Below, piece by piece: positions 2,947 through 55,696 of a stretch of DNA of 64,000 nt. Under the pieces are notes generated by a model, which was not told where the DNA came from, did not search any database, and saw only the letters and a program-made list of their open reading frames with translations. The position numbers were made by a program, and so were the translations under genes. Numbering within the stretch: position 1 is the stretch's first letter; each line of letters begins with the position of its first letter. Origin of the DNA: an uncultured Actinomycetes bacterium (GTDB taxonomy: Bacteria; Actinomycetota; UBA4738; HRBIN12). The stretch covers positions 508,905-572,904 of the forward strand of contig CAWBOB010000007.1 of assembly GCA_963790335.1 (NCBI GenBank), written 5' to 3'.

Positions 2947-4689
2947 CTAGCCCGAGGCGGGCTTGCGCGACGAGAAGTCGCGCGCGTCGTCGGCGACCTC
3001 CGCCTTCGAGCGGCCACCGTTCGTAGCGACCGGTGCACCGAAGGGTGGAGGAGGCACGGGGCGCGTGCGTGAGCCCGACGCCGATCCGGAGCGGCTCTTG
3101 GCGGGCCGTGCCCGCTCGTCGGCTTCGGGTCCGTAGTACTGGTCGTAGCTCGCGTATCCCAGGCTCGACCGCTGGATCGACGTGATGTTGTTGTACACGC
3201 CTCCGGCGATGTCGGCACCGGCCGTGCGCAGCTGGCGGACCGCGTCCTCGAGCGCGGTGCGGTTCGAGATGGCGGGGTCGTGCACGAACAGCACGATGTC
3301 GGCGACCTCGGCGAGGATCGAGGCGTCGGCCACGGGAAGGGTCGGCGGCGCATCGCAGACGATGATGTCGGCCAGCCCCCGCATGTCGTCGAAGACCGAC
3401 GAGGCCTGCGGGCCGGCGAGCAACGCGACCGGGTCGTGCGGCACCTGCCCGCTGCGCACGATCGACAGGTTCGGTACCTCGGTGCCCATGACCAGCTCGT
3501 CGATCGGCGTCGTGCCCTGCAGTGCCTCGCGCAGTCCCGGCCCCTGCTGCACGCCGAGGAAGCGCTCCGCGCGCGGCCGACGGAGGTCGGCGTCGATCAG
3601 CAACGTCTTGATGCCGGTCTCGGCCAGCACCACCGCGAGGTTCGCCGTGGTCGCGCTCTTGCCTTCACCGGGAAGCGCGCTCGTCACGACCACGATGCCA
3701 ACGGGCCGTTGTGAACGCAGGAAGCGCACGTTGGTCGCGAGCGTGCGATAGGCCTCCGACGCCGGTCCGCCCGGATGATCGCGGGAGACGAGCTCCGCGC
3801 GCTCACGGCTGGACCATCCCTCGACGGCCGGGATCACGCCCATGACGGGTGCGCCGATGTAGTCGGCAAGCTCGTCGCGGCCGCCGACCCGGTTCGCCCT
3901 GATGCCGAGCAGGATCGCGATACCGGAACCGATGATGCAGCCGACGACGAACCCGAAGATCGAGGCCACCGCGAGGCCCGGCCCCGACGGCTTGGACGGC
4001 ACGACCGCGGACTGCAGGATGTCGCCTCCGGAAGAACCGCCTTCGCTGGCTCGGATCTGCACCTTTCGGGCCCGGAGATCCGAGATCTCCTGACTGATGC
4101 CGAACTGCTCCGCCTCGAGCCTCGCTCGCTCCTCGGAGGTCGATGCGCTGTCGAGCGCTACCTGCGCGTCGGCGAATTGCTGGTTCAGTTCGGTGATCGC
4201 CGCGTCGAGGGGGACCAACGCATCCACGACCGCTGCACTGACCTTCGCACGGCGATCCTCGAGATAGGCGTCGGCGAACGCATTCGCGATCGTCGCCGCC
4301 GTGTCAGGATCGCCCGCCGAGTATCCGATGAACATCACGAACGAGTCACGGGCCGGCTCCACCGTGACGAGCTTGACGATCTGTTCCGGCGTGGCCGACA
4401 ACCCCAAGCTGGTATCGACCGCCCGAGCGACGCCGATCGAGCGAACGATCTCGGCTTCGGTTGCCATGTCGGGCTCGAGTCCGTTCCCGCTGCTGCTGCT
4501 GTTGATGGTCTGGTTCACGAGGGACGTGACCACGACCTTGGCCTGGGCGTAGTAGGTCGGGGGGCGCAGGGCGACGTAGGCGCCGGCGATCGCCGCCACG
4601 ATGGTGCCCATGGCGACGACGGTCCACATGCGCGCCCTGACCATCTGCCAGTAGTCGCGAAGGTCGAGGATCCTGGTGGAATCGGACAC
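2947..4689 (-). CDS. Polysaccharide co-polymerase / BY-family tyrosine autokinase (Wzz/Wzc-like)
   Basis: Wzz N-terminus DLRDYWQMVRARMWTVV plus TM helix, then a P-loop ATPase (TSALPGEGKSATTANLA, DADLRRP). C-terminal Tyr cluster GYASYDQYYG. GTG start at 4689 has GGGAG 8 nt upstream. The long N-terminal ORF extension is noise. Confidence 0.7.
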   Translation of the reverse strand: MSDSTRILDLRDYWQMVRARMWTVVAMGTIVAAIAGAYVALRPPTYYAQAKVVVTSLVNQTINSSSSGNGLEPDMATEAEIVRSIGVARAVDTSLGLSATPEQIVKLVTVEPARDSFVMFIGYSAGDPDTAATIANAFADAYLEDRRAKVSAAVVDALVPLDAAITELNQQFADAQVALDSASTSEERARLEAEQFGISQEISDLRARKVQIRASEGGSSGGDILQSAVVPSKPSGPGLAVASIFGFVVGCIIGSGIAILLGIRANRVGGRDELADYIGAPVMGVIPAVEGWSSRERAELVSRDHPGGPASEAYRTLATNVRFLRSQRPVGIVVVTSALPGEGKSATTANLAVVLAETGIKTLLIDADLRRPRAERFLGVQQGPGLREALQGTTPIDELVMGTEVPNLSIVRSGQVPHDPVALLAGPQASSVFDDMRGLADIIVCDAPPTLPVADASILAEVADIVLFVHDPAISNRTALEDAVRQLRTAGADIAGGVYNNITSIQRSSLGYASYDQYYGPEADERARPAKSRSGSASGSRTRPVPPPPFGAPVATNGGRSKAEVADDARDFSSRKPASG

Positions 4690-18146: not shown

Positions 18147-19286
18147 ATGAGCGACGCGACCTTGCCGGTGCTCGAGCCAGGTGACCGGCTGCTCTGCGGC
18201 CCCGGCCCGTCGAACGTGCATCCAGCGGTGCTCGACGCGATGCGTTTGCCGATGAACGGTCACCTCGACCCGGACTTCTGGGACATCCTCGTCGACCTGG
18301 TCAGCGGGCTGCGGGCGCTCTGGCGCCGCCCCGAGGGCGGGCTCACGATCGCGCTGAGCTCGTCGGGTACGAGCGCGATGGAAGCCGGATTCATGAACCT
18401 GATCGACCCCGGCGAAACGGTGATCAGCTGCCACTGGGGATTCTTCGGCTCGAGGCTGAACGACTTCGCCCATCGGGTGGGCGCCAACGTGGTCGAGCTC
18501 ACGACCGAGCTCGGGCAGATCGTGAGCGTCGATCGCATCATGCAGACGCTCGCGGCGAATCCCGGCACGAAGATCGTGAGCGTCGTGCACGCCGAGACCT
18601 CGACCGGCGCGGAGTTCCCGCTACAGGAGCTCGCCGAGGCGATGCGCGCGAGCGGCTCCGAGGCGCTGCTGTATGCCGACTGCGTCACCTCGCTCGGCGG
18701 CCAGCAGGTCGAGGCCGAGGCCTGGGGCATCGACTACGGCTACTCCTGCTCGCAGAAATCGCTGGGATGCCCGCCGGGGATCGCGCCGGTGACGGTCAGC
18801 GAGCGCGCGGTCGGCGCGATGTCGCGCCACCAGGGACCCGTGCCCTACTACTACGACTTCGAGGAGCTCTCCAAGTACTGGATCGACCGCCCCATCACCT
18901 ACCACCACACGATGCCGATCCTGCAGTACTACGCGCTGTACACCGGCATCGCGCTCGCCCTCGAGGAGGGGCTCGAGTCCCGATGGGAGCGCAACGCCGA
19001 CGCCGGGCGCTACTTCCAGGACGAGATCCGGGCACGTGGCTTCGAGCTGCTCGCCGACGCCGGCCACCAGCTCGTGGAGCTCACGGCGATCAAGGTGCCC
19101 GAGGGCGTGGACGGCAAGGAGATCCAGACGCGCATCCTGCGCGAGCACGGCATCGAGGTCGGCGGCGGACTCGGTCCGAAGGCGCCACCTATCTGGCGCG
19201 TCGGGCTCATGGGCGTCAACGCCAACCGCGAGACCGCCGATCGCGTGCTCGCGGCGTTCGACGCGGTGCTGCCGCGCTCGTCCTGA
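18147..19286 (+). CDS. sgaA: Serine-glyoxylate / alanine-glyoxylate aminotransferase (class V, PLP-dependent)
   Basis: Class-V aminotransferase fold with SCSQKSLGCPPG PLP-lysine region. GGAGGGAGG RBS. Confidence 0.75.
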   Translation: MSDATLPVLEPGDRLLCGPGPSNVHPAVLDAMRLPMNGHLDPDFWDILVDLVSGLRALWRRPEGGLTIALSSSGTSAMEAGFMNLIDPGETVISCHWGFFGSRLNDFAHRVGANVVELTTELGQIVSVDRIMQTLAANPGTKIVSVVHAETSTGAEFPLQELAEAMRASGSEALLYADCVTSLGGQQVEAEAWGIDYGYSCSQKSLGCPPGIAPVTVSERAVGAMSRHQGPVPYYYDFEELSKYWIDRPITYHHTMPILQYYALYTGIALALEEGLESRWERNADAGRYFQDEIRARGFELLADAGHQLVELTAIKVPEGVDGKEIQTRILREHGIEVGGGLGPKAPPIWRVGLMGVNANRETADRVLAAFDAVLPRSS

Positions 19287-44289: not shown

Positions 44290-45120
44290 GTGTGTGCGTC
44301 GAACATCGCGGACGTGCTGCGGGTCGATCCGTCGGGCTCGGGCCTGGCCGGCATCGAGCCCCGCTCGACTCCTGGCGTCGCGAACCGGGAGGCCGCCGAG
44401 GTCGCGATGCCCGAGCTCGCGGACCGTCTCGACGAGCTGCAGGAGCGCCTGTGGGTCGAAGCAGAGCGGTCGCTGCTCGTCGTGCTGCAAGGCATGGATA
44501 CGAGCGGCAAGGGGGGCACGATCCGCCACGTCTTCTCGGCGATGCACCCCGCCGGCGTCGAGGTGGCCTCGTTCAAGCGACCGACCGACGAGGAGCTCGC
44601 GCACCACTTCCTCTGGCGCATCGAGCGGCGCCTGCCCGTGCCCGGCGAGGTGGTGGTGTTCGACCGTTCGCACTACGAGGACGTGCTCATCGCGCGCGTG
44701 CGCTCGCTCGTGCCCGAGCAGATCTGGCGGGCGCGGTACGCCGAGATCGTTGAGTTCGAACGCCGCGTGGCGGCTGCCGGCACGACGATCGTGAAGTGCA
44801 TGCTGCACATCTCCTACGACGAGCAGCGCGAGCGACTGCTCGCCCGTCTCGACGACCCGTCGAAGCGCTGGAAGTTCAACGAGGGCGACCTCGAGGAGCG
44901 CGCCCGCTGGAGTGACTACATGGCCGCGTACGCCGACGCGATCCGGGAATGCTCGACCGACGACGCTCCCTGGTACGTGATCCCCGCCGACCGCAAGTGG
45001 TACCGGAACTGGGCGATCTCGTCGCTGCTGGTGGCGACGCTCGAACGCATGGATCCGCGACTGCCGGTGCCCGATCTCGATATGGACGCGCTCAAGGCGC
45101 GCCTCGAACCGCCCGGCTGA
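44290..45120 (+). CDS. ppk2: Polyphosphate kinase 2 family (polyphosphate:nucleotide phosphotransferase)
   Basis: PPK2 motifs (LQGMDTSGKGGTIRHV Walker A, VVFDRSHYEDV, WYVIPADRKWYRNWAIS). Confidence 0.8.
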   Translation: MCASNIADVLRVDPSGSGLAGIEPRSTPGVANREAAEVAMPELADRLDELQERLWVEAERSLLVVLQGMDTSGKGGTIRHVFSAMHPAGVEVASFKRPTDEELAHHFLWRIERRLPVPGEVVVFDRSHYEDVLIARVRSLVPEQIWRARYAEIVEFERRVAAAGTTIVKCMLHISYDEQRERLLARLDDPSKRWKFNEGDLEERARWSDYMAAYADAIRECSTDDAPWYVIPADRKWYRNWAISSLLVATLERMDPRLPVPDLDMDALKARLEPPG

Positions 45121-45170
45121 TGCTCGTCGGCGCTCCGCCCGTTCCGCATCTGCACCCGTAGCATGGGGTG

Positions 45171-45849
45171 ATGCCCGAGCGACCTCGCCGACGCGTGGCG
45201 CCCTGACCACCTCGAACGCGTTGGCGCCCTGACCACCCTCGCGATCGTCGCTGCCGCGTGCTCCGGTGGTGCGGACCCTGTCGGTGTCTCGCCGGTCAGC
45301 GATCCGCCGACGGTGACCGCGAGTGGCGTGCCGTCGGGCGATGGATCCGCTGTTTCGGGACCGACGCCCGACGTGCTGCGGTTCTCCGCTCCCCGGCTCG
45401 ACGGCGGCACCGTGCGAGGTGAGGACTACTCGGGCAGCGACGTCGCCTTCTGGTTCTGGGCTCCGTGGTGAACGACGTGCCAGGGGGCGGCCCCTGACGT
45501 CGCGCAGGTTGCGCGAGCCTACGGCAGCGACGTCGAGTTCATCGGCGTGCCCGGCAACGACTCCACCGAGAACATGCGGGCGTTCGTCGACGAGTACGGC
45601 CTGCGGTTCCAACAGGCGGTGACCGAGGACGGCTCGCTGTGGGCGCGGTTCGGCGTTGCCTACCAGCCGGCCTGGGTCTTCGTCGACGACTCGGGTGAGA
45701 CCACGGTCGTGCCCTACGAGCTCGGCAGGGACGACCTCGAGGCGACGCTCGACGAGCTCATCGAGCAGTTGACGCGCCGGCCGATCGCCCGCGTCATCGG
45801 CCGGTCGCGCGCCACGCATCGAGGAGCGCTCGCTCTCGCTCGGCGCTGA
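45171..45849 (+). CDS. TlpA/ResA-like thiol-disulfide oxidoreductase lipoprotein; in-frame TGA at the first Cys of CxxC (candidate selenocysteine or pseudogene). The 5' end is disrupted by a 25-bp tandem duplication.
   Basis: Frame 1 reads FSAPRLDGGTVRGEDYSGSDVAFWFWAPW-TGA-TTCQGAAPDV...FIGV. This is the exact thioredoxin-fold WAPWCxxC context, with TGA at 45469-45471. The ATG 45171 signal peptide (MPERPRRRV...) is in another frame because of the duplication at 45190-45240. Confidence 0.45.
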
Positions 45850-46790
45850 GCCCCGCCTGCATCGGTTCCTGCTCTCGGTCCCGATCCCACGCGAGCGTGT
45901 CGCGCACGGTCTCGGCCGGCGGCCGGCACTCGAGGCCGGCCCCGAACGCGCGGCTCGGGTCGAACGCGTGGAATCCCGGTGCCTCCGGCCACCACAGCGG
46001 GAACGCCTCGTGCGGGTCGTCGCCGGCTTCCTCACCGGCGAAGGCCTCGACGATGAACGCCTCGTCGACCCACACGACGTCGGTCGACGCACCGGCCGCA
46101 GCGGCGGCCTCGCCGATGACCTCTCCCAGGGTCATCGTGGGCGCACGGTCCACGACACCGTAGACGCCGGGCGTCGCGTGCTCGGCCAGCGAGAGCACGA
46201 ACGCCGCGAGGTCACGGGCGTCGACCCACTGCAGCCCGTAGTCGGAGGGCGCGGGGGCGATCATCTCGCCGCCGGCGGCGCCCCGTCGCACCCAGGAGGT
46301 GAACCGGTCGGTCGGATCGTTCGGTCCCACGATGAACCCCGGCCTGATCACGCAGGCGCGGTCACCGAAGACCTGGATCACCTCGCGCTCGCACGCCACC
46401 TTGAGCGGTCCGTAGGTCTCGTCGGTGACGTCCTCGGTGTCGGGGAACGGCGGCTCGAAGATCGGGGAATCCTCGTTCGCGCCCGGCGGCAGATCCTCGG
46501 GGTGCGCCGACAGCGACGAGATGAACCCGTACCAGCCGCTGTCCGCCAGCAACCCGGCCGAAGCCCGCACGGCCCTGCGGCACGTAGCCGCACGTGTCGA
46601 CGACCGCGTCGAACCGGCGTCCGGCGAGCGCGTCGACGCCCTGGTCGCGATCGCCGATGACGTGCTCGGCCTCGGGCATGAGATCGGTCGGCGTGCGGTG
46701 GAACAGGGTGACCTCATGTCCTCGCTCGAGCGCGAGCTCCGACAGGGCCCGGCCCGAGAACCGGGCCCCGCCGATGACCAGCAGCCTCAC
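45794..46790 (-). CDS. NAD-dependent epimerase/dehydratase family protein; apparent frameshift near 46580
   Basis: N-terminus VRLLVIGGARFSG...TCGYVPQ, then it continues in the frame of ORF 45794..46717. GTG start 31 nt after the fba stop. Confidence 0.5.
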
Positions 46791-46821
46791 GGACGGCCCC
46801 GTGCCGCTCGCGGCCGCGCGA

Positions 46822-47844
46822 TCACGCTGCCGATGACTCCAGCTCGGCCCGGTACTCACCACTCGTGGCGAGCCCGTTCATGCGCGCCCGGTGCGTGAGG
46901 GCATCCTGTGCAGCCTTGACGTTGGCATCGTCTCCGCGCCATGCGGCGAGCGACGGCGCCTGCAGGGCCCGGCCGTAGGAGAAGCTCAGCCGCCACGCAA
47001 GGCCGCTTCCGCCGATGCGGTTCATCTCGTTGAGCCGGCTCGTGGCGTGCTCGTCGCTCATGCCGCCCGACAGGAACACGACGCCTGGGACCTCGGCAGG
47101 AACGTTCGCCGTGAGGCATCGGATCGTGGCTTCGGCGACCGTGGCGTCGTCGTCCTGCGTGGCGGACCCCGTGCCCGGCACGATCATGTTGACCTTGAGC
47201 AGCGAGCCGGGCAGATCGACCCTGGCCTCAGCCATCGAGCGGTACAGGGAGTCGAGCGTGCGCCCGGTCGCGTCCTCGCACGCGGCGATGTCGTGGTCGC
47301 CGTCCATGAGGATCTCGGGCTCCACGATCGGCACGACCTCGGCTTCCTGGCACAGGGCGGCATACCGAGCCATCGCGTGGGCGTTGGCATCGATCGCTGC
47401 ATCGGTGGGGAGCCCATCGCCGATCATGATCGTGGCGCGCCACTTGGCGAATCGGGCACCGAGCCCCACGTACTCAGCGAGTCGCTCCCGCAATCCGTCG
47501 AGCCCTTCGGTGACGGTCTCGCCGGGGAAGAACGCGAGCGGCTTCGCGCCGGCGTCGACCTTGATGCCGGGGATCACGCCCGCTTCCTGCAGGACCTGCA
47601 CGAAGGTGCGGCCGTCGTCGGCCGACTGACGGATCGTCTCGTCGAACAGGATCGCGCCGCTGATGTGGTCGCCGACCCCGGGGGTCGTGAACAGCAGCTG
47701 GCGGTACCGGCGTCTGGCGTCCTCGGTCGAGTCGACCCCGATCGTGTCGAAGCGCTTCGCGATGGTGCCGCTGGACTCGTCGGCCGCGAGGATGCCCTTG
47801 CCGGGCGCCACGAGCGCCAGCGCCGTGTCGTGCGTCGATGTCAT
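46822..47844 (-). CDS. fba: Fructose-bisphosphate aldolase, class I
   Basis: Class-I aldolase signatures (GKGILAADES, IPGIKVD, Schiff-base Lys region LLKVNMIVPG). 340 aa. Confidence 0.85.
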   Translation of the reverse strand: MTSTHDTALALVAPGKGILAADESSGTIAKRFDTIGVDSTEDARRRYRQLLFTTPGVGDHISGAILFDETIRQSADDGRTFVQVLQEAGVIPGIKVDAGAKPLAFFPGETVTEGLDGLRERLAEYVGLGARFAKWRATIMIGDGLPTDAAIDANAHAMARYAALCQEAEVVPIVEPEILMDGDHDIAACEDATGRTLDSLYRSMAEARVDLPGSLLKVNMIVPGTGSATQDDDATVAEATIRCLTANVPAEVPGVVFLSGGMSDEHATSRLNEMNRIGGSGLAWRLSFSYGRALQAPSLAAWRGDDANVKAAQDALTHRARMNGLATSGEYRAELESSAA

Positions 47845-53038: not shown

Positions 53039-53134
53039 GCCTCTCGCTCCTTTCGGCGGCGCCGGGACTATGCCACAGCCGGCGTCGTAGGATGGCGCAA
53101 CCTCGACCCCTCGACTCCTGCAGGAGGATCGCCA

Positions 53135-54698
53135 GTGTCTGGTTCCACTCGACGTCGCCCGCTCGTCTCACTCGCGTCGACGACCCTTGCGCTGTGCCTG
53201 TCGATGCAGCTGATCGCATCGCTCGGCGCCCCCGTCGCTGCCGAGCCCGCCCGGCGCGGACTCGCCCCCGCGACGCCGGAGCTCATCGACCGTGCCGTGC
53301 GCCGCGGCGTGATCTCCGAGGCGCGTGGGGCGCTCTTCCTCACGTGGGCGCTCTCGGAACCCGCGCGTCTCCCCGAGGCGTACGTGAGCGGCACCCCGTG
53401 GTCGGGCACGCTGCCCCTGCTGCGGTTGCGCGAGCGCCTGGCCACGCTGGGGCACGCACCGGCCGCCGTGGCCGCGCGCGCGGCGCTGCGCGGACAGTCC
53501 TTCGCATGCCCCGGCACGCGCGGACGGCTCCCGCATCGGCGGGTCACCGAGCACTTCCTCATCCAGTACAAGGCTTCGGCGCTCCGGGGCCTCGCCATCC
53601 GCAAGTACGCGGGCGCGCTGGAGTCATCGTGGAGAACCGAGATCACCAGGTTCGGCTGGGCCAGGCCTCCCCGCGATCCGGTGAGCTACCCGGCCGGCGG
53701 GCGCTACCCAGTGCGTATCGAGGACCTCGGCACCGGGCTATACGGATACGTGGCCAGCACGCGGTTCGCCGGCAACAATCCCGCGACCTCATGGAACGAC
53801 CGCGACGCGCTCGCGAGCTGCATGGTGCTCAACCGCAACTTCGGTCCGTTCCCCGGAAGCCCGCTCGACGCCCTGCGCGCCACATCGGCGCACGAGTTCA
53901 ACCATGCGATCCAGTTCGGCTACGGTGCGCTCACCGGCTACGGCAAGGTGACCGGCCTCTTGGTCGAGGGGCTCGCGACCGAGATGGAGGACGAGGTCTT
54001 CGACACCTCCAACGACAGCACAACTACCTGTGGCCGGACTTCCTCCTGCCGATGGGCTACTACCAGAAGCAGCCGTACCCGTACTGGGTCGTGTTCCGCG
54101 CCATGGTCGAGCGCTACGGCGAGGGCCGTCGCAACGGAGCGGAAGCCATCTACCAGGTCGTCTGGGAACAGATCAGCAAAGGGGCGAGCACGAACCTCGC
54201 GGCCCTCGCCAAGGGGTTCAGGGTCAAGAACACCACGCTGCCGACCGCCTACCACAACGCATCGATCGCCTTGCGGTTCCTGGTGAACTGCGCCACGACC
54301 TGCGATGCCTACTGCCTCGAGGAAGGCCCCAGCTACGTGGCCGCTGCCGGTGGAAACCGGAATCACGCCAGCGTGGGCGCCGTAGCTGCCACGCTCTCAC
54401 GGCAGATCGCGAACGACTACGCGCTCAACTGGATCGGTCTCCCGGTCGGCGCGCCGTTCACCCTCACCGTGACCCACGACGGCGGCGCCGGCGTACTCAA
54501 AGTCAGCATGGCATGCCGCACCGGCAAGACGCGTCACGGTCACCCCCGTCGGCACCGCGACGTCGACAGCCGACGCGAACGCCACCGGTCGACCCGAGCA
54601 CGTGCGACGCGGCGACCGCCGTGATCTCGAACGTGAAGCAGACCTCGCCCACCCCGAACTCGATCACGAGGACCGACTACACGATCTCGACCGCGTAA
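53135..54698 (+). CDS. Secreted HExxH zinc metalloprotease-like protein; two apparent frameshifts (about 54010, about 54535)
   Basis: Signal peptide after GTG (GGAGGA RBS). HEFNH motif. Body continues in ORF 53092..54624 and the tail in the frame ending at 54698. Confidence 0.45.
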
Positions 54699-54738: not shown

Positions 54739-55696
54739 TCAGGCCTGGCCGATGGGGTCGCTCGAGATGTCGCCGCGCACGGGCCCGAGCGACTCGCCGA
54801 GCTTCGCGGCGACGCGATCGATGCGCGCGAGGTAGGCGTAGATCTCGTCGCGCAGCTCCTTGGCCCGGTCGTTGAGGCCCTGCAGGTCGGCGAGCTTCCA
54901 GTGCTTGTCGAGGATCGGCCGCACCACCTGGTCGTGATGGATCCGCAGGTTGTAGATGCCCACCTGCGCCATGGCCTTGGCCTTCTCGCGGAACCCGGCG
55001 ATGCCCACGCCCGGCATGGCGAAGTTCGTGATCTGGCGATGCATCGCCTCGACCATGGCGCTGGGGTCGAGCTCGATCGCGCCCATCGCCATGTCGCGGT
55101 AGAAGACGTAGTGCAGGTTCTCGTCGGTCGCGACGCGGGAGCAGAGCTTCTCGGCGGTCTCGTCGTCGGTGATGGCTCCGGTGTTGCGGTGTGAGATACG
55201 GGTCGCCAGCTCCTGGATGGTCGTGAACACGATGCCGTCGAGCGGCCCCTGCTCGCTGAAGGCCGGGTACCAGCCCGCCCATCGCCTGGTCCATGCGGCC
55301 GCGCTCGAGGATCACGGGGTCGACGCCGCGGGTCACGGTGAGGTAGTCACGGATCACGATCGCGTGGCGGCCTTCCTCGGCGGTCCAGCGCCGCACCCAC
55401 TCGCCCCAGGCTTCCTTGTCGCCGAAGGTGCGCCAGAGCGCCAGGTGGTAGTAGGGAAGGTTGTCCTCGGTGAGCAGGTTCACCTCGAGCGCCGTCTGGG
55501 CCACGTCGGGCAGGCGCGAGTCCGAGGCTTCCCACGGCTCCTTGACGAAGTTGCGGCCCTCTTCGTACGGAACGTAGTCGTGCGGCATCCACTCGGTGGT
55601 GGTGGCGACGTGGCGATCGAGCGCCGTTCCCACCTGGGGCATCAGCTCGTGCAGGATCGCTTCGTTCGAGAGCTGCTCGCCGCGGGGTGGGGTCAT
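54739..55696 (-). CDS. desA: Acyl-ACP desaturase (soluble di-iron stearoyl-ACP desaturase family, DesA-like); apparent frameshift near 55240
   Basis: Di-iron ligand motifs (EDNLPYYHLALWR, WTAEEGRHAIVIRDYL, DENLHYVFYRDMA). GAGGAG RBS before ATG 55696. Confidence 0.6.

Follow-up and report, generated by a model that had tools for sequence, protein, structure and literature searches.

This locus raises the question of whether an in-frame TGA in the catalytic motif of a redoxin gene marks a decaying gene or a codon for selenocysteine (Sec). The gene lies at 45150-45849 of a 64,000-nt stretch of contig CAWBOB010000007.1 (GenBank assembly GCA_963790335.1), from an uncultured Actinomycetes bacterium; we call the whole stretch the window, and all coordinates are counted from its first letter. 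An earlier note on this DNA had left two readings side by side: a genuine selenoprotein whose start had been misplaced, or a gene decaying through a tandem duplication and a nonsense mutation. We consider it highly likely that the locus belongs to a family of actinobacterial extracytoplasmic, lipid-anchored Sec-containing (UxxC) oxidoreductases homologous to DsbF and DsbE, and more likely than not that the lesions of this particular copy are errors rather than mutations. The selenoprotein reading is strongly supported by the TGA, which 48 of 48 relatives share at this position, by Cys at that codon in more distant homologues, and by RNA hairpins specific to the TGA forms. From these comparisons, the in-frame TGA very probably encodes Sec.

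The coding part of the gene is made up as follows.

45217-45264, plus strand: hydrophobic core of the signal peptide and lipobox (RVGALTTLAIVAAA-C-S), in frame 1
45265-45468, plus strand: linker and N-terminal part of the thioredoxin fold, ending at the WAPW motif
45469-45471, plus strand: in-frame TGA, putative Sec codon, at the site of the N-terminal Cys of CxxC
45472-45768, plus strand: 99 codons after the putative Sec, C-terminal part of the thioredoxin fold, colinear with the orthologues
45478-45480, plus strand: TGC, the resolving Cys of UxxC, invariant in the alignments

Read in frame 1 from 45172, the sequence runs ...DVAFWFWAPW-TGA-TTCQGAAPDVAQVARAY..., the downstream stretch starting TTCQGAAPDV. 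The redoxin with a TGA at 45469-71 directly after WAPW, as first described in the earlier note, is therefore present, and with Cys placed at this codon the protein exceeds the Pfam cut-offs for AhpC-TSA (49.6 bits, cut-off 26; 4.8e-13), Redoxin (34.4 bits, cut-off 26.6), Thioredoxin and Thioredoxin_8. It combines a thioredoxin fold with a WxxW-CxxC motif, the first Cys of which is UGA. The best matches among solved structures are M. tuberculosis DsbF (3IOS; E = 3.8e-32) and DsbE/MPT53 (1LU4; E = 1.6e-22), and the TGA aligns to the first Cys of CPTC in DsbF 3IOS (CPTC vs U-T-T-C). A lipoprotein-type signal peptide ending in (A/S/G)-C is found in every orthologue with a complete 5' end. The window encodes the corresponding lipobox, RVGALTTLAIVAAACS, with the codon of the Cys to be lipidated at 45259-45261 in frame 1; owing to a 25-nt insertion, this is a frame other than that of the ATG start. 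The product would thus be an exported, lipid-anchored thiol-disulfide oxidoreductase with Sec as its attacking residue, its export, lipidation, redox direction and substrates being predicted from homology.

Conservation of the TGA was assessed by scanning one genome per bacterial species with the peptide patterns DVA[FL]W[FL]WA and F[QP]QAVTED, the TGA codon lying outside both. The scan returned 37 loci from 36 Actinomycetota metagenome-assembled genomes (MAGs), at 38-78% identity and with several labelled Acidimicrobiales, Egibacteraceae or Euzebyales, and TGA was present at exactly the same codon in each of the 37. A scan of JGI metagenomes added 10 TGA forms and 24 Cys forms, the top relative being 79% identical. 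In all, every one of the 48 relatives at 38% identity or more (37 genome loci and 11 metagenome contigs, 38-79%) carries TGA. More distant homologues have TGC or TGT at the codon in all 28 cases whose DNA was read, and 22 of 23 more distant database proteins that were aligned have Cys, so that the UGA aligns with the redox-active Cys of distant homologues as well as with that of M. tuberculosis DsbF. The nearest database protein (P0001, 61% identity) has W at this position; its DNA (L001) reads TGA, and the W arose because the JGI gene caller read TGA as Trp under genetic code 4. In that call (L001 262-1044, JGI contig Ga0679442_0157368; 260 aa), a spurious extension was added at the N terminus, within which another TGA is read through.

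Coding sequence is intact on both sides of the TGA in the relatives that carry it. Complete genes from the genome scan extend 98-103 codons past the TGA to ...LDxLIxx-stop, two others ending at a contig edge; family-wide, complete genes have 98-105 codons after the TGA, and the nearest orthologues (L002-L015) have 99, as does the window. The UGA is thus kept in the orthologues of other organisms, together with the protein on either side of it. These data bear directly on the simplest account of the locus, namely that it is a pseudogene in which a nonsense mutation changed TGC to TGA at the catalytic Cys and in which the hairpin that follows is a chance product of GC-rich coding sequence. Such a change requires one substitution, the window sequence taken by itself does not fold significantly better than its shuffles, and Sec machinery was not seen in the window. 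However, the same TGA recurs in 48 of 48 relatives at 38-79% identity, with open reading frames (ORFs) conserved on both sides, and the hairpins are specific to TGA forms and either covary or are fixed at synonymous sites. We therefore regard this account as extremely improbable, and the nonsense mutation that had been proposed is refuted by a codon common to all 48 relatives.

A different possibility is that the UGA is decoded, though not as Sec: the code may be reassigned, with UGA read as Trp or Gly, or the hairpins may stimulate near-cognate read-through. The translation of the L001 TGA as Trp by the JGI caller would fit this, and Sec insertion itself is a step that we infer. However, TGA is the predominant stop codon, terminating 22 of 30 well-supported window ORFs as well as 27 of the 35 redoxin genes that the genome scan recovered complete, which argues against reassignment. 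Moreover, the code-4 version of L001 requires read-through of the second TGA in its spurious extension, and the recoded site is exactly the redox-active Cys of the homologues, a hallmark of Cys/Sec pairs. Non-Sec decoding is, in our judgment, highly improbable.

The RNA downstream of the TGA provides a further line of evidence for Sec insertion. In an ungapped alignment of 39 sequences (A4; UGA at columns 7-9), nucleotide conservation 3' of the UGA is strong, synonymous sites included, and two adjacent hairpins lie in this region.

45481-45496, plus strand: hairpin 1, CAGGGG-GCGG-CCCCUG, the upper stem of the hairpin noted earlier, beginning 9 nt after the UGA
45500-45516, plus strand: hairpin 2, UCGCGC-AGGUU-GCGCGA, near-invariant in the family and the best fit to the bacterial consensus for selenocysteine insertion sequence (SECIS) elements

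The bulged hairpin that the earlier note had pointed out at 45474-45501 (GACGU-gc-CAGGGG-gcgg-CCCCUG-ACGUC) is present as described. Its interpretation as a SECIS-like element holds in part: the upper stem is a conserved structure that agrees with minimal rules for bacterial SECIS (bSECIS) elements, while the lower stem is not conserved and hairpin 2 fits better. The lower stem (GACGU/ACGUC, 45474-78 with 45497-501) occurs in the window and L009 only, and competes with hairpin 2 for 45500-45501.

The two hairpins are conserved in different ways. The stem of hairpin 1 covaries across clades (CAGGGG/CCCCUG, CAGGAG/CUCCUG, CAGGC/GCCUG, CGGGC/GCCCG, CCGGG/CCCGG and CGGC/GCCG), and a Pro codon within it alternates between CCU, CCC and CCG to match the stem. 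Hairpin 2 is the single consensus helix predicted by RNAalifold, with 99.1% of cells paired and two double changes that keep a pair (G-C to U.G in L024 and G-C to U-A in L051); its loop, [N]GGU[N], begins 34 nt after the UGA. Given that the register of hairpin 1 shifts between clades, structure was evaluated by folding each sequence against a null in which the protein sequence was kept and synonymous codons were resampled. Against this null, excess stability at p <= 0.05 was seen for hairpin 1 in 22 and for hairpin 2 in 29 of the 39 sequences, with median z of -2.0 and -2.2, respectively. In the window both hairpins are intact and perfect.

Both structures are also specific to genes with the TGA. 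Median minimum free energies in TGA vs Cys forms were -12.2 vs -5.4 kcal/mol for hairpin 1 and -10.9 vs -5.2 kcal/mol for hairpin 2, and the hairpin 2 motif was found in eight of the ten new TGA forms from metagenomes vs none of the 28 Cys forms. The motif CGCGCRGGUNGCGCG (CGCGCRGGTNGCGCG) occurs once per locus, at the UGA site only, in 34 of 38 loci. Where Cys forms encode the near-identical peptide APDVAKVARAN, they do so with GCC and GCA codons, and hairpin 2 is not formed. One Cys form (P0010, L042 744-800), which encodes APDVAQVAAEF, has a partial hairpin-2-like element (GGCGCAGGUCGCC, -8.6 kcal/mol) that may be a relic of a Sec-to-Cys conversion. A scan of the window for hairpin 2 with one mismatch allowed gave two extra matches, 4154-4168 and 19129-19143, both on the minus strand; these were rejected as further elements, as both lack an upstream in-frame TGA and chance alone predicts about two matches.

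Published constraints on bSECIS elements comprise a loop of 3-9 nt, a stem of 4-16 bp and a distance of 16-37 nt from the UGA, with a G within the first two loop positions followed by G or U (PMC13188914). Hairpin 2 lies within all of these: its stem has 6 bp and its loop, AGGUU, begins 34 nt past the UGA. Hairpin 1 agrees with the minimal rules marginally, its spacing being 15-17 nt.

Several results weigh against the Sec interpretation or limit it. A fixed-column count finds just 66% of the hairpin 1 cells paired, as its register is displaced by 1-3 nt in the NR and RHD clades. In the window alone, the 81-nt region 45460-45540 does not fold significantly above dinucleotide shuffles (z = -0.98), so structural support was taken from the comparison, which favors both hairpins. 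With Rfam at a permissive threshold, no SECIS model matched in 45300-45700, where the only hit was a chance match to CRISPR-DR (E = 9.8); bacterial SECIS elements usually go unmatched in this way, as has been reported for those of Actinomarina (bioRxiv 10.64898/2026.04.03.716425). The hairpin bound by SelB could be either of the two, hairpin 2 being the most likely. The copy as assembled could not give rise to a lipoprotein, since the frame of the ATG ends after 11 codons, and no same-species contig was found against which the duplication could be checked, the nearest relatives being 78% (genomes) and 79% (metagenomes) identical.

Searches for the Sec-decoding machinery also returned nothing. 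ARAGORN found no tRNA-Sec in the 64-kb window and 47 loci, and tblastn with approximate E. coli SelA and SelD queries, a weak negative, found no selA or selD in the window and 88 loci; the related loci covered by these searches amount to about 728 kb. The sel genes need not be linked to their target genes. An 88-nt ARAGORN call in L009 (11857-11944, minus strand), labelled tRNA-Arg(acg), falls within apparent protein-coding DNA; it does not represent a tRNA-Sec and is probably spurious. Published reports describe Sec machinery in many mycobacteria and, among the Acidimicrobiia, in one lineage, Actinomarina (bioRxiv 10.64898/2026.04.03.716425).

If the TGA does encode Sec, expression of the family can be pictured as follows. 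The mRNA would be leaderless, with the TANNNT hexamer lying 5-7 nt ahead of the start. A ribosome arriving at UGA 45469 would meet two adjacent hairpins within the coding sequence that together serve as the Sec-insertion signal, the first keeping its structure while varying in sequence and the second being near-invariant in sequence. SelB carrying Sec-tRNA(Sec) would bind one of them, most likely hairpin 2, and Sec would be inserted in competition with release factor 2. The product would then be exported, lipidated at the Cys encoded by 45259-61, and act as a selenol/thiol redox catalyst on exported proteins outside the cytoplasmic membrane.

Whether the window copy could follow this course depends on its 5' end, for which two features are relevant.

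45159-45164, plus strand: TAGCAT, a -10-like hexamer 6 nt upstream of the ATG, an arrangement of the leaderless-mRNA type
45171-45173, plus strand: ATG, orthologous start codon, opening an 11-codon ORF (MPERPRRRVAP) that stops at TGA 45204-45206

The conserved motif CCCGTAGCATGGGGTG precedes ATG 45171 (45155-45173), and CCCGTAGCAT-GG---GATG is invariant across 7 aligned sequences. A TANNNT hexamer is present 5-7 nt upstream of an in-frame start in 34 of 44 family loci, which suggests that the mRNA is probably leaderless. Scans with sigma-70 and terminator consensus sequences over 45000-45950 detected nothing, so TAGCAT is a putative promoter element. Orthologues L005-L007 start HGV-MPERNLRT... 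at the site of ATG 45171 and, by this alignment, ATG 45171 is the orthologous start. The earlier suggestion of a misplaced start can accordingly be set aside: the start is the conserved one and the insertion truly breaks the frame. The ORF from ATG 45171 and the redoxin are translated in different frames, and frame 1 has no ATG, GTG or TTG upstream of 45313.

The break in frame, and a second lesion beyond those described in the earlier note, map to two sites.

45190-45240, plus strand: imperfect tandem duplication, copy 1 at 45190-45213 (24 nt) and copy 2 at 45214-45240 (27 nt)
45763-45772, plus strand: stop-loss site, with one extra base in 45763-45769 that puts the orthologous TGA at 45770-45772 out of frame

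The tandem duplication of about 25 nt that had been noted at 45190-45240 was recovered both by Tandem Repeats Finder (imperfect tandem repeat, 26-27 nt, 45182-45242) and by alignment with six orthologues, in which it appears as a 25-nt net insertion after codon 7 that is found in the window only and shifts the frame by +1; its phasing is refined here to 24 + 27 nt. As had also been proposed, the signal peptide is restored only when the duplication is removed, giving MPERPRRRVGALTTLAIVAAACS, which matches orthologous lipoprotein signal peptides such as MPERNLRTIAAIVLLPIAVAACS. Comparison with the orthologues thus places the putative Sec codon in 48 of 48 close relatives and the duplication in the window alone. 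The two copies differ solely by three 1-nt differences in homopolymer length (A/AA, T/TT and CC/CCC). At the 3' end, alignment of ATCGAGCAGTTGAC (window) with ATCGCG-AGCTGAC (L003) locates the extra base, which is absent from all orthologues and because of which the ORF continues to TGA 45847-45849 and gains a 26-residue tail overlapping the convergent gene.

Indels of this kind are not restricted to the redoxin gene, at least five more of 1 nt disrupting genes nearby. The adjoining downstream gene on the minus strand (45794-46862), which has no Pfam match at 1e-5, is frameshifted by a 1-nt insertion at about 46576, whereas 11 related loci have it as one unbroken ORF. The others, at about 54020, 54532, 54586 and 55273, frameshift the genes at 53117-54695 (plus strand) and 54742-55672 (minus strand), both unbroken in 2-4 loci among L002, L004, L009 and L014, which suggests an indel-rich assembly. 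In an orthologue from MAG MFD05567.bin.1.54 (L004, about 10090), the signal peptide is in frame 2 and the redoxin domain in frame 0 owing to a 1-nt insertion between them. We take the MAG label to denote a long-read (Nanopore) assembly, and the insertion to be a probable sequencing error of such reads.

By contrast with its reading frame, the encoded protein shows no sign of erosion. Of the 64 residues that do not vary among the 21 closest orthologues, the window copy has lost none (leave-one-out for the others, 0-3), and an old pseudogene is excluded by these residues together with the two perfect hairpins. Neither a private premature stop nor lost conserved residues were found, and only the possibly artefactual indels fit decay. 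Because the insertion is unique to the window, its copies differ only in homopolymer length, 1-nt indels lie nearby and the coding sequence is without decay, we read it as a probable artefact: the 25-nt duplication and the loss of the stop are probably assembly or sequencing errors rather than real lesions.

The duplication and the stop loss could instead be true mutations, in which case the window would hold a very recent pseudogene of the Sec family from which the lipoprotein is no longer made. The start frame does end after 11 codons with no in-frame canonical start before the signal peptide, the insertion is missing from six of six aligned orthologues, the second lesion takes away the stop codon, and the frameshifts in neighboring genes could mean that the genome itself is decaying. 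Set against this, none of the 64 invariant residues is substituted and the hairpins are intact. Moreover, three 1-nt homopolymer differences fall within the 51-nt duplicated stretch, vs one indel in the other ~600 nt, a concentration that neutral decay does not readily explain. The frameshifted neighbors are apparently housekeeping genes, conserved in up to 11 genomes, a pattern that looks like an error-prone assembly. Recent loss of function is consequently unlikely in our view, though it deserves serious consideration, and decay by duplication, as the earlier note had it, stands insofar as the frame is indeed broken by the insertion, while artefact is the likelier cause.

It has also to be considered that the duplication is real and that ribosomes get past it by a programmed +1 shift at CCC-UGA-C (45201-45207), yielding MPERPRRRVAP|DHLERVGALTTLAIVAAACS.... 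The well-known prfB shift site consists of a slippery codon followed by UGA-C, which the window sequence resembles. The frame arithmetic fits, the ATG frame plus one being that of the redoxin, and the resulting peptide retains a charged n-region, a hydrophobic core and a lipobox and would be a plausible lipoprotein signal. However, this arrangement occurs in no orthologue and no Shine-Dalgarno-like stimulator was seen upstream. As the site was created solely by the private insertion, CCC-UGA-C is not an evolved signal, and we assign almost no probability to this bypass.

The neighbors of the gene in the window encode ABC-transporter permeases, PPK2, the frameshifted unknown gene, a class-I aldolase, a YkuD transpeptidase and TypA/BipA; neither CcdA nor DsbD is among them. 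TGA forms have PPK2 upstream and a neighborhood other than that of the Cys forms. Among the latter, P0003 and P0004 (flanks in L039 and L040) have a MurL-like epimerase on one side and a HAD hydrolase on the other, and P0013 (L041 1087-1579) is directly followed by a DsbD_TM (CcdA-like) gene. One MAG (JBKJNA01, Acidimicrobiales ant_bin.349) has two TGA-form copies on different contigs (L026 and L035; SSCNRV... and GSCNRV...), which could be paralogues or strain variants. Other in-frame TGAs in the window with coding signal on both sides gave no convincing case of a second selenoprotein.

Annotation pipelines miss this family: it is not annotated as a selenoprotein at NCBI, and the JGI caller recovered the gene on one contig only by moving to genetic code 4. 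N-terminal halves of the four orthologues looked up (L003, L013, L002 and L010) are present in NCBI as 'hypothetical protein' entries of 93-102 aa that end at WAPW (HEX7248463.1, HWC72028.1, MEX1263513.1 and MGH2539726.1, respectively). An exact-protein look-up returned no full-length orthologues written with X at the Sec position.

For specialists the surprise is modest, since UxxC thioredoxin-fold selenoproteins are familiar. What may be new, and we advance this tentatively as a single joint claim, is an unannotated exported, lipid-anchored Sec DsbF with a distinct bipartite class of SECIS in mostly uncultured Actinomycetota, in which a structure-only hairpin at the E. coli-like position is followed some 30 nt later by an invariant GCGC-[N]GGU[N]-GCGC hairpin. 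If this is true, the second hairpin could be used as a lineage-specific search motif for more selenoproteins. The family in any case offers a well-sampled Sec/Cys pair (49 TGA vs 28 Cys forms) with solved structures of Cys forms (DsbF and DsbE) and a delimited TGA-specific RNA element, and is convenient for asking what Sec gives an extracytoplasmic oxidoreductase and which hairpin is recognized by actinobacterial SelB. In this locus the TGA that resembles damage is very probably the functional heart of the gene, and the duplication, the lost stop and the frameshifts in neighbors speak to assembly quality rather than to biology.

Known systems place these findings in context. DsbF and DsbE are exported actinobacterial thioredoxin-fold thiol-disulfide oxidoreductases. 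The window protein is colinear with M. tuberculosis DsbF (Rv1677; 3IOS) and DsbE/MPT53 (1LU4) over ~120 residues, and the DsbF motif LWFWAPWCPTCQGEAP (LWFWAPWC-P-T-C-QGEAP) corresponds to FWFWAPW-U-T-T-C-QGAAP in the window. DsbF and DsbE have Cys at both CxxC positions and mRNAs without a recoding signal, in contrast to the window gene, in which UGA occupies the first position and two conserved hairpins follow.

Selenoproteins of this general type are long established. Predicted thioredoxin-fold selenoproteins with UxxC include a thiol:disulfide interchange protein and a Prx-like thiol:disulfide oxidoreductase, and the same table lists thiol-disulfide isomerase-like proteins (cd02966), a UGC-containing TlpA family and a 'Redoxin family protein' (PF08534, UxxC) (PMC13188914, Table 1). 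These published UxxC selenoproteins and the window family share the fold class, the position of Sec at the N-terminal redox site and the existence of Cys homologues, and the window gene is a member of this kind. Actinobacteria or Actinomycetota are not mentioned in that work (PMC13188914). The window family may be identical with the published 'Redoxin family protein' (HEU0032618.1); if that protein belongs to another family, the window gene would represent a new selenoprotein subfamily. The cut-off of no NCBIfam selenoprotein model is reached, and two such models show weak thioredoxin-fold similarity, NF041054 (WAxxUGC_long; E = 5.6e-5, 22.6 bits vs a cut-off of 300) and NF053656 (redoxin_TUGYCR; E = 5.1e-4, 20 bits vs a cut-off of 100). 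As the scores are under the cut-offs and the motif is WAPW-U-T-T-C rather than UGC or TUGYCR, the gene falls outside both.

With respect to the RNA signal, the bacterial SECIS (bSECISearch consensus as given in PMC13188914, with E. coli fdhF as the archetype) is a stem-loop within the coding sequence directly after the UGA, as is seen here. Hairpin 2 resembles it in having a stem of 6-7 bp and a loop of 3-5 nt, [N]GGU[N], 34 nt after the UGA, and hairpin 1 in having a stem of 4-9 bp with a loop that usually begins with G, 15-17 nt after the UGA. The window family differs from the archetype in that a pair of neighboring conserved hairpins, one of which is predicted to bind SelB, takes the place of a single long bulged stem-loop.

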